The notes under the pieces were generated by a model. It did no database searches, had not been told where the DNA came from, and saw only the letters and a program-made list of their open reading frames with translations. A DNA stretch of 64,000 bases from a virus (Duplodnaviria; Heunggongvirae; Uroviricota; Caudoviricetes): IMG/VR virus record IMGVR_UViG_2724679237_000005, positions 32,001 to 96,000 of that record; one strand, 5' to 3'. The position numbers and the translations under genes are program-made. Shown here piece after piece: positions 3,957-45,040 of this stretch. The number at the start of each line of letters is the position of its first letter. Positions within the stretch are counted from its first letter, which is position 1.

Positions 3957-5099
3957 TTACAGGTCTGCAAACTGGCTTAGAGAAGCCTTGTCCACGGTAG
4001 AATCGATCTGACCTACCAGATATGTGCTTTGCTCTGCCTCTTGTGGTGCAATTTGCAGTGTGTCGGTTAACAACCACTTGTTCATCCAGACCAGCGGATC
4101 TGTGGTAACTTCTGGAAATAAAGCCTTCAGGCCAAGACGATTCATAGCCAGATTGGTTCGGTATTTTACATAGGTCTTCAGAATATCCGCGTTTAAACCA
4201 ATCATCGAACCGTCTTTGAAGAGATAGTCTGCCCAGTTCATTTCTTGTTCGGCGACTGATTTCATGGTGTCGTAAATGACGTTTTCTTCATCAGCAGCAA
4301 TCTCTTTCCACAATAAACCTTCGCGACCGGTACGCATGAAGCGGATCATGCGTTCAGTTCCTTCGCAATGCAGAGCTTCATCACGGGCAATAAAGCGCAT
4401 AATTTTGGTGTTACCCTCAAGCAACTTCCGTTCGCCAAAGGCAAACGTACATGCAAAACTTACATAGAAACGGATCGCCTCAAGCGCATTAATGGACACC
4501 AACGTGCGGAAAAGCTGACGGTGCAAAGGGTATGGCTCCCAGCCATATTCATTTACGTACAGACGTTCAAACTCTTTCTCACCTAACGACTGGCGCTCGC
4601 AGGTCATCCCATAAAGCCTGTCATATTCAGCAGAGATACTGATCGCTCGGTTGATGATTTCTTCATCCGTAACAATACCGTCAAAAACAATGCTCGGATC
4701 GTCCACCATGCCACGAATAATGTGGGTGTAGCTGCGGCTATGGATAGTCTCAGAGAAAGACCATGTTTCAACCCACGTTTCCAGTTCAGGAATAGAGATA
4801 AGCGGCAGCAGCGTTGCATTTGGGCTACGTCCCTGAACTGAATCGAGTAACGTTTGATAACGGAGATTGCTCAGAAAAATGTGACGTTCGTGGTCCCGCA
4901 GCTTCGTGTTGAAGTCGATACGATCGCTCGAAATATCAACTTCTTCCGGCCGCCAGAAGAAAGACAATTGACGTTCAATCAACTTTTCAAAATCACGGTA
5001 TTTTTGCTGATCGTAACGTGCCACGTTGACAGATTGTCCGAGGAACATAGGTTCTTTGGTTGCATCATTAGCACCCAAACGGAACGTTGAATATGACAT
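3957..5099 (-). CDS. nrdB: ribonucleotide reductase class Ia small subunit
   Basis: Strong resemblance to enterobacterial NrdB N-terminus ([31 protein letters not shown]); start at ATG 5097-5099 with AAGGA RBS. Confidence 0.9.
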
Positions 5100-7562: not shown

Positions 7563-7593
7563 TTAATAGATAAGCACTTACCTATCAATGAGA

Positions 7594-29579: not shown

Positions 29580-29830
29580 TCAATCAATCCATTCTAACTT
29601 ATACTATGGTAAGGAATACTACTAAAATTTGTATCAATACTGAATACATCTATATCAGATGCAAGTTAATTTTCTTACCTATTTTGGGCTGGTTTTTCTC
29701 CATGCATGGACCTTTGCTCGGTCTTACAAGTGCCTGCCGAAAAAAATGATAATAGCTTTACAACCCTAATCTTTGATGTAATATCGGTAAGCACTTACCA
29801 GAGAGAATTAAACGCGCAAAGGTTGTAATA

Positions 29831-31945: not shown

Positions 31946-33208
31946 ATGCCTTTTTTAATTTTCATTATTATACTACTGCTCACCGTGATTTTTTGGGATT
32001 GGGTTGTTTTAAATGGTCAAATTGTTGGAACATTGGCTACAGCATTTGCTTTTATAGCAACAGCATGGAATGCCTACGAAGCGAGAAAAAGTGCAAAAGC
32101 AGCTTTTTCAGCCCTTCAATTAACAACAGAATCATTGTTCGAAATGCGAAAGAGTGCATTTAAACAATGGTTTGATTCCTTATTAAATCAACATGATGAG
32201 CTATGTCTTCTTGCAAAACAAATTATCGATAAACGCAAAGTTAATTTAAACAGCGATGAGTTACATAGACTATATTACCCATTGGTAAAACAGCATGAGG
32301 TAATACAGTATGTGAAGCATATTATTAATATTTTTGAGTATGTGGATAGTTCATTTTATATTGATGGGGAATGTCTAAAGGAAAAAAGAGCGTATGTGTC
32401 ACAATTAATTTTCAAAATCCCACCTCAGATGAAGTTGATCATTGCTATCTTTGGATTAAAAATCGATTATTGTGAACATATTAATTCGGGAAAACTGTGT
32501 TGTTTATTGAATAAATATGATTTTTTCAATGATGAAATATTTTTTGATGATGCTTATTCAGATATGCCTTATCTGGATGCATTCATAAACCTTAGATTCA
32601 ACAAAATATTCAAATCTCGAATGATAAATTATTTTGATAATATCATTAAAAGTTATTATGTTCCATCGGACGTTAAAAGGGACTGGATGTTTCGAAACCC
32701 AAAGCTCGTGCCGTCGGTTCTTATGAATTATAAAACTCCTTGTTCTCCTATAATTAATGATTACTTTGAGAAGTTGCCTTTACATGTAAGAAACTACTTT
32801 GAGGAACTACTTAAAACCGCGAATGATAGAGTTACTCATTTTGACGTTTACATCCCACGCCTTATTGGTTGTTCAATCGTGCAACATTACGAAGATGTGC
32901 CTTCCGAAAAAAACAGGTTAAATGACAGGAATGATGTAATAGCTATGGCTGAAGATTACATCGAGAAAAGAAAATATAATCAACTGGATTACATACTTGA
33001 AGATATATACTTCAAGAGTGACGAAGATATAATCCCTGGCCACCATTTGATTGTGGCATTTGATGACTATGAATTTAAATTATCACTCATTAAGATAAAT
33101 GAGAATAAAGATAGCGATAATCTTTTAAATCGAATTTATACTGAATCCAGTAGCATGGTTAAAGAATATAAGCGCGAAATATTAAAACTGGGCGACTATG
33201 TAAAGTAA
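31946..33208 (+). CDS. membrane-anchored protein of unknown function in AT-rich island (candidate defence or exclusion protein)
   Basis: 420-aa ORF, two N-terminal hydrophobic helices, strongly AT-rich versus surroundings, own terminator. Confidence 0.6.
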   Translation: MPFLIFIIILLLTVIFWDWVVLNGQIVGTLATAFAFIATAWNAYEARKSAKAAFSALQLTTESLFEMRKSAFKQWFDSLLNQHDELCLLAKQIIDKRKVNLNSDELHRLYYPLVKQHEVIQYVKHIINIFEYVDSSFYIDGECLKEKRAYVSQLIFKIPPQMKLIIAIFGLKIDYCEHINSGKLCCLLNKYDFFNDEIFFDDAYSDMPYLDAFINLRFNKIFKSRMINYFDNIIKSYYVPSDVKRDWMFRNPKLVPSVLMNYKTPCSPIINDYFEKLPLHVRNYFEELLKTANDRVTHFDVYIPRLIGCSIVQHYEDVPSEKNRLNDRNDVIAMAEDYIEKRKYNQLDYILEDIYFKSDEDIIPGHHLIVAFDDYEFKLSLIKINENKDSDNLLNRIYTESSSMVKEYKREILKLGDYVK

Positions 33209-33223
33209 ATTGCACTGTTCAAC

Positions 33224-33255
33224 AAAAAAGGGGCCGAAGCCCCTTTGAATTTTGC
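33224..33255 (+). terminator. rho-independent terminator (bidirectional character)
   Basis: stem ggggc/gcccc with cgaa loop, flanked by A-run and T-run. Confidence 0.6.
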
Positions 33256-33320: not shown

Positions 33321-33398
33321 CACAGCGTTGAGCGGTCTGGTTTATGTTAGCGGAGTCTTAATCGAGTTGATTAAAAGGCCAAACCGCTCAACGCTGTG
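33321..33398. repeat. 16-bp inverted repeat (cacagcgttgagcggt / accgctcaacgctgtg) with about 46-nt loop abutting tRNA-Ser 3' end
   Basis: read directly. Confidence 0.4.
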
Positions 33399-33400
33399 TC

Positions 33401-33487
33401 TGGCGGAGAGTAATGGAATCGAACCATCATCGTTTGCACAATGGGACGGTTTTCAAGACCGCTTGAGCACCATGCTCCCTACTCTCC
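33401..33487 (-). tRNA. tRNA-Ser (anticodon UGA), type II with long variable arm
   Basis: hand-folded cloverleaf: acceptor GGAGAGT/ACTCTCC, anticodon loop CTTGAAA, T-loop GGTTCGATTCC, encoded CCA. Confidence 0.75.
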
Positions 33488-33807
33488 AGCTATTGTGATG
33501 GTCGGTGCTGAACTCCGACACAGGGTTGTAGCAAGCCCCGCAAAGCGCGCACTACTGTAGTTGCGGCACATCAGCCTGTGCATTCATCACAATGGTAAGA
33601 TCACTACCTTTCGACCAGTCATTGTGCACATGAACGACGATTAACCGTAATGATATTATCGTTGTGTTGTGAAGCCAGATGCTTATCTTCTGGTTGCTTC
33701 AAAGAGCTGCACTTCCTCACAACGGTAAGAGCACTGGTCTGACTCTATCGATTTACGGCCTTGTGGGTCAGTATCGCCGATTCGCCCAATGCTCTTACCT
33801 GTTGTGT

Positions 33808-33883
33808 TGGTGCCGGTTAACGGACTTGAACCGCTGGCCATTCGCTTACAAAACGACTGCTCTACCAACTGAGCTAAACCGGC
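33808..33883 (-). tRNA. tRNA-Thr (anticodon UGU)
   Basis: acceptor GCCGGTT/AACCGGC, D-arm GCTCAGTTGGTAGAGC, anticodon loop TTTGTAA, T-arm AGCGGTTCAAGTCCGTT, CCA. Confidence 0.8.
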
Positions 33884-33887
33884 AATT

Positions 33888-33974
33888 TGGTGGGGAGTGA
33901 TGGAGTCGAACCACCCGAGTCGCCATGACAGTAGATTTACAGTCTACACCGCTACCTCTACGGACTAACTCCCC
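33888..33974 (-). tRNA. tRNA-Tyr (anticodon GUA), long variable arm
   Basis: acceptor GGGGAGT/ACTCCCC, anticodon arm GTAGA-CTGTAAA-TCTAC, T-loop GGTTCGACTCC, CCA. Confidence 0.7.
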
Positions 33975-33979
33975 TAAAT

Positions 33980-34054
33980 TGGCGATGGTGGGTGGATTCG
34001 AACCACCGACCAGTTGGTTAACAGCCAACTGCTCTACCGCTGAGCTACACCATC
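33980..34054 (-). tRNA. tRNA-Asn (anticodon GUU)
   Basis: acceptor GATGGTG/CACCATC, anticodon arm GTTGG-CTGTTAA-CCAAC, T-arm GGTGGTTCGAATCCACC, CCA. Confidence 0.8.
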
Positions 34055-34832
34055 AATTCAGCACTGCCAGTATTTATTACTCAACAGTGCCAATCGCGAC
34101 GGTTTAGTTTCTGCCAGGAAACGCACCGCTACTTGCACTTTTCGTTAGTGCCAGACGCTTTCGACTTCGCTCAATAGTAGAAGGCAAAATCTTTAAGTAG
34201 ATGATGTTTCTGAGGACAGCACCTACTTTGTAATTTATACAATGTGATGTATGGAATCATTTGTTGTGAAAACAGGCACCAATGGCAACAGTGGTTAAAC
34301 CTACACAACAATCCCGTCTTCACAACGTTGAGGCCACTACTCCGATTGAATGTTTGCCCAACATGTTACATATCAACGCTCGCCGGTATCTCTGTGAATA
34401 GAACCTTAGAATTGATAAAAATGTAATGGCCTCAACGTTGTGTGCTGGCTAACCATACCAGCCGGGCTACGTCGCCGCTTTTTAACCCAGTATAAACGAC
34501 ATAATTGAACAAAATGACGTAACAGGATGGGCGGTCAGTGGCTAAGAATCCGGGAGTCATATGGAGTTGAAAATATACCAACCGCCCATTCTGTTACTTC
34601 ATCGGAGGGAACATGAATGTTCCCTCCTGCGTTCTGCAATCACACTCGCTCAGTGTGTCCCATTTCGGTAACGAGGCTGGAAACTGACCTCGCTGGTGTT
34701 TGGCTTATTAGGCTACTGCCAGATAGACTTCTTCGTTTGCACTTGTATTTAAGTTCAAACAGTCGCGTCTCAACGAAAACAAAGTCATCTTATACATAAA
34801 AGATAAGTAAGTAAACACTTATCGCTGTGTTT

Positions 34833-44683: not shown

Positions 44684-45040
44684 ACCTTTCTTCATCAACT
44701 CTCGTTTGATTTCATCGGTACGCATCGTGACATCGGCAGCGGTGATCGCCTCATTCAATTTCACGATGTCCTCGATTTCCTGCGGTGACTTCTCTGCCAG
44801 ATGGAAAATGGCTGCTCGAATCACGTCAGAACGAGTGAACTTCTCGAAGCGAGGGATGAACTTCATCATCTCCAGCAGTTCGAAGTATTCGTCCTCCAGT
44901 GACATTGTGCGGCTTTTAATTTTCTCTTTGCCACGAGTCGGGCGTCCCTGTGGTCTGACTGGTTGGCGCAAAGGAGTTGTGTTCTTAGCCGGTGCATCAG
45001 GCTCTTTGCGCTTTGCTAGGTCACCCATTTTCATGGACAT
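44681..45040 (-). CDS. ParG-like partition protein (putative ribbon-helix-helix)
   Basis: small basic protein immediately downstream of parA-like gene, start overlaps its stop. Confidence 0.45.
   Translation of the reverse strand: MSMKMGDLAKRKEPDAPAKNTTPLRQPVRPQGRPTRGKEKIKSRTMSLEDEYFELLEMMKFIPRFEKFTRSDVIRAAIFHLAEKSPQEIEDIVKLNEAITAADVTMRTDEIKRELMKKG

Follow-up and report, generated by a model that had tools for sequence, protein, structure and literature searches.

Double-stranded stems form the RNase III sites of ribosomal RNA (rRNA) operons and of the early region of phage T7 and punctuate the polycistronic transcript in which they lie; the rRNA-operon stems bracket the RNA that is released, adjoin spacer transfer RNAs (tRNAs) and pair over 1.5–2.9 kb, and the T7 early sites contain internal loops and receive a single cut. 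In the Qin prophage of Escherichia coli K-12, RNase III is needed for the 5′ end of a 190-nucleotide (nt) DicF species (Faubladier et al. 1990; PMC10448788), and the title of Daniels et al. 1988 (Virology 167:568; PMID 2849240; reference 49 of PMC7547250) refers to the mapping of RNase III sites in the Q-mediated late transcript of lambda. The substrate groove of the enzyme spans ~22 base pairs (bp), and in vivo the two positions that separate its staggered cuts form base pairs, a G-C among them (PMC6212723). Here, the spacer between tRNA-Thr and tRNA-Ser (33488–33807) was analyzed in a 64,000-nt stretch of a Caudoviricetes genome (IMG/VR record IMGVR_UViG_2724679237_000005, positions 32,001 to 96,000; hereafter the window), whose phage is related to those deposited under the names Escherichia phage CMS-2020a and Cyrano. 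Read in the sense of the tRNAs, i.e., from the minus strand, the spacer consists of two ~20-bp hairpins, each followed by a small structured module. We consider it probable (roughly 0.6) that these are RNase III punctuation hairpins in a phage tRNA/non-coding RNA (ncRNA) operon, and they are homologous to hairpins in the lambda late leader and upstream of dicF.

In order to compare loci, a covariance model (R1) was built from the alignment of the phage hairpins. Exactly four strong matches were found in the window, all of them in the tRNA region (next best 15 bits), and these fit the model end to end, with stems of 20–21 bp, a length in line with the ~22-bp groove of RNase III (PMC6212723). 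Lambda, which was outside the training set, has a match at 44787–44862 (56.5 bits, E 4e-13) located in the late leader directly after the tR′ terminator of 6S RNA, where it is the sole ~20-bp stem. The lambda stem is nearly identical to that of hairpin 1 in the window (CACAACAGGUAAGAGCAUUG / CAGUGCUCUUUCCGUUGUG) and is likewise followed by a module closed by GUUGUG.../...CACAAC; it differs in its loop and in following an intrinsic terminator, not a tRNA. In E. coli K-12 Qin, R1 matched NC_000913.3 1649173–1649256 (26.9 bits, E 1e-5), between ydfC and dicF, with the architecture CAUAAC...GAAAGCGCAUGG / CCGUGCGCUUCC...GUUGUG. A 190-nt species that ends at the annotated DicF 3′ end (1649434) would start at 1649245, which is inside the 3′ arm of this hairpin, between GUGCG and CUUCCGGUUGUG and 12 nt above the stem base, and the R1 match together with this computed end gives the family homology to a mapped rnc-dependent site. 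Like the spacer hairpins, the dicBF site is found in an untranslated stretch of a polycistronic (here prophage) transcript; it is upstream of a small RNA and has its RNase III-dependent 5′ end within the 3′ arm. It differs in having a diverged stem with one mismatch and a much weaker R1 match than the phage copies, and in lying beside a small RNA (sRNA) and an mRNA, not tRNAs.

When the Qin end is transferred to hairpin 1 together with the usual 2-nt stagger, cuts are predicted near 33730/33729 and 33792/33791 (+/-2 nt). Between the transferred cuts, whose site is itself predicted to ~2 nt, lie an A-U and a G-C pair, as would be expected under the in vivo G-C rule (PMC6212723). The rRNA-operon and T7 sites resemble the window hairpins as double-stranded stems that punctuate a transcript, the role proposed here, but share no sequence homology with them. 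Taken together, the hairpins probably function like the known RNase III punctuation sites, and homology groups them with those of the lambda late leader and dicBF.

The 28 diverse hairpin copies in the stem alignment were taken from prophage contigs and from the window, P1, D6, Sashavirus, Nonanavirus, and a Phapecoctavirus. In the 21-bp helix, 95.9% of the cells are paired, and 12 of the 21 pairs (55 cells) have changes on both sides, for instance GAGCA/UGCUC to GGGUA/UACCC, GAACA/UGUUC or GUUGAGAACA/UGUUCUCAAC. The observed values were reached by none of 500 shuffles, and a slid partner strand pairs in just 33–55%. G·U cells outnumber A·C cells by 50 to 9 (5.5:1), pairing amounts to 95.9% in the tRNA sense vs. 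88.6% in antisense, and all four strong window copies score 8–21 bits higher on the minus strand. The G·U excess and the higher transcribed-strand model scores therefore point to an RNA on the tRNA strand, and the covariation indicates that the hairpin structure is selected as RNA. Judged by sequence, the copies are co-oriented with the flanking tRNAs or genes in six annotated contexts, namely the tRNAs in P1, D6, and phiWec188, the head genes in Sashavirus, and the Q-to-holin region in a CE10 prophage and in lambda.

The long hairpins follow the consensus CACAAC-A-GGUAAGAGCAYUGG ... CCAGUGCUCUUAYC-GUUGUG, with interchangeable loops of ~30–85 nt (Table 1). Hairpin 1 has a stem of 20–21 bp, CACAAC-A-GGUAAGAGCAUUGG / CCAGUGCUCUUACC-GUUGUG, and a loop of 48 nt; the stem of hairpin 2 is more degenerate (CACAACGAUAAUAUCAUUACGG / GGUAGUGAUCUUACCAUUGUG), and hairpin 3 (CACAGCGUUGAGCGGUUUGG / CCAGACCGCUCAACGCUGUG) begins 2 nt past tRNA-Ser. 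Module B, which was also found in P1 and Sashavirus, is closed with the help of the GUUGUG of the hairpin 1 3′ arm and encloses a small hairpin, CCAGA-AGAUAAGCA-UCUGG (33693–33675). Its closing helix covaries as well, from GUUGUGAGG/CUUCACAAC to GUUGUGGUG/CACCACAAC in Sashavirus and GUUGUGGUG/CGUCACAAC at another locus. Module C, ~96–97% identical to P1, ends 4 nt short of tRNA-Ser and encloses the hairpin GCACA-GGCUGA-UGUGC (33581–33566), for which four covarying stem variants were found, nearly all fully paired; the D6 counterpart of its closing helix is GUGGUG...CACCAC. ARAGORN called four tRNA genes in the window, all on the minus strand, and no other tRNA, so a transfer-messenger RNA or additional tRNAs were dismissed as identities for the spacer. 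The promoter scan predicted no sigma-70-like promoter inside the tRNA/ncRNA unit.

Table 1. Features of the tRNA/ncRNA region on the minus strand, listed in the tRNA sense (window coordinates)
Feature	Position	Strand	Basis and remarks
Weak fifth hairpin of like architecture, GUAACAGAAUGGGCGGU / ACCGCCCAUCCUGUUAC	34518–34598	-	R1 15 bits, E 0.063
Hairpin 4, same family, ~80-nt loop	34321–34442	-	R1 54.9 bits minus vs. 46.2 plus; upstream of tRNA-Asn
tRNA-Asn	33980–34054	-	ARAGORN, Rfam; upstream cluster member
tRNA-Tyr	33888–33974	-	ARAGORN, Rfam; upstream cluster member
tRNA-Thr (UGU)	33808–33883	-	ARAGORN; Rfam tRNA 66.8 bits; CCA end 1 nt upstream of hairpin 1
Hairpin 1	33718–33806	-	R1 67.2 bits minus vs. 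46.2 plus; inverted repeat I2; stem covariation
Module B	33666–33723	-	Closing helix GUUGUGAGG (33723–33715) / CUUCACAAC (33674–33666)
Hairpin 2	33588–33666	-	R1 48.8 bits minus vs. 32.7 plus; aligned with phiWec188 hairpin 2
Module C	33492–33593	-	Closing helix AUUGUGAUG (33593–33585) / CAUCACAAU (33500–33492)
tRNA-Ser (UGA)	33401–33487	-	ARAGORN
Hairpin 3, same family	33321–33398	-	R1 50.0 bits minus vs. 41.1 plus; inverted repeat I1, 95% complementary
Intrinsic terminator, probable end of the tRNA/ncRNA transcript	33227–33246	-	Terminator scan

An earlier note on this DNA had described a triplicated motif in the spacer, and three copies are indeed present, at positions that differ from those given there by 3–6 nt: 33588–33605 (+, CACAATGGTAAGATCACT), 33718–33735 (+, CACAACGGTAAGAGCACT), and 33788–33806, inverted and with one extra base. 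Composition does not account for them, as two plus-strand matches (≤ 3 mismatches) were found vs. 0.02 expected and none of 100 shuffles reached two. The ~20-bp inverted repeat that it reported was recovered with arms at 33724–33737 and 33786–33799, 48 nt apart, and extends to 33718–33806, starting 1 nt past the tRNA-Thr 3′ end (33808); the 9-bp inverted repeat ATTGTGATG (33492–33500) / CATCACAAT (33585–33593) can likewise be read from the sequence. The motif is the stem arm of the minus-strand hairpins, and two family hairpins outside the spacer had been missed. Of the interpretations offered there, processing hairpins are favored by the stem covariation, the wobble asymmetry, and the dicF and lambda homologs, and a stable small RNA from hairpin loops or inter-hairpin modules is possible. 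A covariance-model scan, which had been proposed as a check, gave no Rfam 15 family for 33488–33807 at gathering and permissive thresholds (chance-level matches of ≤ 16 bits), while the custom model R1 found the long hairpins. Operator sites for the nearby helix-turn-helix (HTH) regulator received no support. The core said to be shared with the regions upstream of nrdA and of the HTH gene, TAAGCACTTACC, matches only those two sites in the window (7571 and 29788), and the spacer carries GGTAAGAGCACT instead. The flanks of the two copies (7571–7582 and 29788–29799) are unrelated to each other, and chance alone should yield ~120 pairs of repeated 12-mers on the same strand in 64 kb (N^2/2/4^12). 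The pair is a chance repeat with no relation to the spacer motif, and the link to HTH or nrdA operators was rejected because TAAGCACTTACC is absent from the spacer and the flanks are unrelated. The copy at 29788 forms part of a near-palindrome, GGTAAGCACTTACC.

Under the punctuation reading, the tRNA/ncRNA operon would be read from the minus strand as a single untranslated RNA built of two kinds of modules, long ~20-bp hairpins and small modules closed by their own short helix. Host RNase III would cut each long stem with a staggered double cut ~12 bp above its base, parting tRNA-Thr and tRNA-Ser from the intervening RNA; the tRNAs would keep trailers of ~16 nt, to be trimmed by 3′ exonucleases, while the loops ("cargo") and the inter-hairpin modules would be freed as separate small RNAs. 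After cleavage, we speculate, a downstream module could re-pair its 5′ end into a protective stem. The GUUGUG that ends each long hairpin is at the same time the 5′ strand of the second covarying helix that closes the next module, so that the two helices are mutually exclusive (33715–33723 with 33666–33674 in the window; 1058–1066 with 1134–1142 in the lambda locus, L129), and these competing helices could act as a folding switch before and after cleavage. If this reading is correct, a conspicuous repeat of a phage tRNA cluster is explained by RNA processing, not by regulation through a DNA-binding protein, and the homology joins two isolated old observations of RNase III processing, one in the lambda late leader and one upstream of dicF.

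Several points weigh against it. RNase III cutting of the hairpins in this phage and in P1 is a prediction, the Qin match is moderate (26.9 bits), the 190-nt length of DicF is a gel estimate, and it is from a title that we infer the published lambda RNase III sites to lie within 44787–44862. As GUUGUG is shared with a covarying alternative helix, the long stem may be transient, and the minimum-free-energy fold of lambda favors the module-closing helix over the long stem. Finally, RNase III needs no conserved stem sequence, so the combination of partly conserved arms and exchangeable loops is not fully explained by what the enzyme recognizes. This combination suggests something more, e.g., a cargo-RNA cassette or recombination in the arms. 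In its strongest form, which we regard as rather unlikely, the arms would be a portable RNase III excision cassette, a single pair common to enterobacterial phages, with which these load and release varied cargo RNAs of 30–85 nt that are swapped among unrelated phages by arm recombination. If true, this would be a previously unrecognised modular small-RNA expression system with cargoes, some of them loops with T-arm-like or otherwise conserved hairpins, that are drawn from tRNA operons and late leaders and act on targets in the host or in rival phages. The pairing of conserved arms with exchangeable loops gives a lead toward new small RNAs of phages that can be put to the test.

An alternative that overlaps with the punctuation reading places the function in the cargo and not in the cutting: the arms, like the 16S/23S processing stems, would present or release regulatory RNAs (sRNAs, sponges, decoys) that reside in the loops or modules. 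For instance, the C/A-rich CACAACA stretches might titrate GcvB, a host sRNA, in the manner of the prophage anti-sRNA AgvB. We judge this alternative unlikely, even though at one locus (tRNA-Thr followed by module B) four unrelated loops sit between near-identical arms, the hairpin also occurs behind tRNAs, terminators, and other modules, and the hairpin 2 loop is kept between this phage and a Phapecoctavirus despite diverged stems. The D6 loop of the hairpin downstream of tRNA-Ser is, moreover, a free-standing module after the lambda hairpin, and modules can therefore sit inside hairpin loops. CACAAC is about 30-fold enriched (3 in 320 nt vs. 0.28 per kb window-wide), and a precedent is 3′ETS-leuZ, a tRNA 3′ external spacer that reportedly serves as an sRNA sponge; it is mentioned in bioRxiv 10.1101/2021.04.25.441314. 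AgvB carries CACAACA, a GcvB target motif with the consensus CACAAC, and sits 3′ of PR′ in prophages (PMC4104026). Both resemble the spacer in origin, being functional RNAs derived from a tRNA spacer (3′ETS-leuZ) or from prophage sequence 3′ of PR′ (AgvB), and the CACAACA of AgvB is enriched in the spacer. AgvB differs in being a primary transcript of 53–60 nt that has a terminator of its own, and it shows no homology to the hairpin: its sequence (PMC4104026) lacks the GGTAAGAGCA stem, and the spacer lacks the 3′ terminator region that is conserved in AgvB. Furthermore, the CACAAC copies of the spacer are buried in covarying helices, and sRNA pairing was not supported. Duplexes of GcvB R1 with the C/A-rich parts ranked in the top 2.7–4.4% of the window background, and the strongest segment (0.19%), which is not C/A-rich, lies in the loop of hairpin 1; the duplex output looked unreliable. 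The exact GcvB 9-mer GUUGUGAUG is absent from the window. A GcvB sponge or mimic was thus set aside as an identity, since the CACAAC enrichment is real but the 9-mer is missing and the C/A-rich duplexes are unremarkable; it survives within this improbable alternative. The hairpins might also be passive, insulating the folding of tRNAs and modules or shielding the transcript from Rho, RNase E, and 3′ exonucleases with no RNase III cut. The ~1.6-kb untranslated region is entirely a chain of helices, hairpins begin 1–3 nt past tRNA ends or terminators, and the alternative closing helices suggest modular folding. Yet RNase III is expected to cut a perfect 20-bp duplex in E. coli, an end that depends on RNase III has been mapped where the Qin homolog lies, and the semi-conserved stem sequence would be left unexplained, so that we think a purely passive role quite improbable.

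That the repeats act as DNA, i.e., as terminal inverted repeats of a miniature mobile element, as short recombination linkers by which modules are shuffled from phage to phage, or as operator sites, would fit their mosaic distribution over unrelated phages and the situation in Cyrano, which lacks the spacer through an indel of several modules bounded by CACAA repeats. We consider it very improbable given the 5.5:1 ratio of G·U over A·C and the higher transcribed-strand scores, which point to RNA, the lack of an associated transposase, and the absence from the spacer of the supposed operator 12-mer TAAGCACTTACC; no target-site duplications were found in the flanks of 70 distinct copies, and a miniature inverted-repeat transposable element was rejected on this ground. 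Plus-strand protein coding follows the annotation of P1 and its relatives, in which plp (Plp, a putative lipoprotein) and upl are placed here, and upl and a 73-amino-acid (aa) open reading frame (ORF) of the window match PHROG families of unknown function, while Plp matched none. The ORFs of the window spacer, on the other hand, have just 30–39 aa, the sole 73-aa ORF crosses tRNA-Thr in antisense, P1 plp shares 30 nt with tRNA-Thr, Plp has no Pfam match, Upl has a chance-level one (E 0.078, 13 bits vs. a cut-off of 27), and conservation tracks helices, not reading frames. Coding is hardly credible on these grounds and was rejected for its short ORFs, sub-threshold Pfam scores and helix-based conservation; plp and upl of P1 are probably mis-annotations over structured RNA that were propagated through P1-like genomes. 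In P1, upl/plp (L001 2376–2945; window 33488–33900) occupy the strand opposite the chain of covarying hairpins, and no counterpart of these ORFs is kept in the window.

Other identities were examined and discarded. Matches to Y-RNA-like YrlA were at chance level only and overlapped tRNAs. The sequence UGCUCUUA in the 3′ arm resembles the boxA consensus of NusB/NusE antitermination, and this identity was dropped because the covarying variants UACCCUUA, GUGUUCUCAA, and CCGCUCAA destroy the motif. An integron attC-like site or an IS200/IS605-type insertion sequence end, judged by the general criteria for such elements, found no support either, as the ends have unsuitable sequences and neither an integrase nor a transposase is present.

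The widespread hairpin family linking lambda, Qin/dicF, P1, and other phage tRNA clusters appears to be undescribed in the literature searched; it is missing from Rfam, and RefSeq annotates nothing as this family. Rfam searches of eight homologous loci returned only tRNAs, C4, isrK, and, next to hairpins of P1 and D6, an STnc100 match below threshold. P1, P7, and D6 match the window in the tRNA region and the spacer only, and by BLAST the spacer is a mosaic whose segments match P1, P7/D6/SJ46, Sashavirus/Nonanavirus, and Phapecoctavirus. The hairpin chain of P1 lies opposite the annotated ORFs plp and upl, the Sashavirus hairpin is found in a non-coding gap between head genes, and in phiWec188 (Phapecoctavirus) the hairpin is part of a tRNA cluster and starts directly after tRNA-Thr. 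Cyrano, with tRNA-Thr-ACACAATT-tRNA-Ser, lacks the spacer, which makes the entire spacer an indel with CACAA repeats at its borders. A pattern scan found at least 120 matching stretches in viral contigs, and R1 gave > 400 matches, both strands counted, in 100 phage loci. In the loci covered by R1 the hairpin is preceded by a tRNA 3′ end, by a small GC-rich hairpin or, in lambdoid prophages, by an intrinsic terminator that has the Q antiterminator gene on one side and the lysis genes on the other. Arms and loop go together as one unit and recur unchanged behind differing upstream and downstream sequences.

In complete E. coli genomes, a 241-nt lambdoid segment (one hairpin with flanks) was matched in 1065 of 5426, many of the matches covering the flanking module only. 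Among species-representative genomes, the GGTAAG-type pattern, which covers one hairpin subfamily, gave 15 stretches, and R1 confirmed those in Escherichia, Pantoea, and three contigs binned as other taxa (two strong scores and one weak at 23 bits); the latter three may be misbinned phage or contamination. A 137-kb contig labelled as an Acidobacteriota metagenome-assembled genome (MAG) carries, in the region 4279–4556 (L138), a strong hairpin match (54.8 bits) ~110 nt from a same-strand tRNA with a 4-nt anticodon (CCAT) and is probably a misbinned phage. A contig labelled as a Cellvibrionaceae MAG (L136) scores 58.8 bits, just as the most frequent lambdoid copies of E. coli do, and this hints at contamination.

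Further observations concern individual loops, neighbors, and tRNAs. The hairpin 2 loop of the window (33606–33645), which comes from a P1-like phage-plasmid, and that of phiWec188 (L004 1520–1565) share ATCGTCGT..TGTGCACAA..TCGAAAG, and the loop contains a small covarying hairpin with the loop GUGCACA. Except for a 3-nt indel, the 5′ arm of hairpin 2, ACACAACGATAATATCATTA (33646–33671), is similar to the AgvB 5′ seed region, ACACAACAATATCAGTA, a likeness that could be due to chance. D6 (L003 2411–2522) and lambda (44863–44935; L129 1064–1136) have a ~65-nt sequence in common, AATTAAGCGAATNCCGGAAGCAGAACCGGATCACCAAATGCGTACAGGCGTCATCGCCGCCCAGC. P1 hairpin loops hold tRNA T-arm-like elements, GGGTTCGAATCCC, GGGTCATATCCC, and GGGTTCATATCCC (L001 2828–2914, 2595–2688, and 2334–2412), and small GC-rich hairpins that look like relics of tRNA 3′ ends stand ahead of several P1 hairpins away from tRNAs. 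The STnc100-like matches (RF02076, a Salmonella sRNA; 33–40 bits vs. a gathering threshold of 47) lie at L001 2218–2337 in P1, following the last hairpin of the chain, and at L003 2294–2414 in D6, following the hairpin downstream of tRNA-Ser; the window has no equivalent. The tRNA-Ser (UGA) at 33401–33487 is missed by the Rfam tRNA model and resembles tRNA-Sec at 44.8 bits, below the gathering threshold of 47 bits, and the D6 annotation records the same oddity for its homolog.

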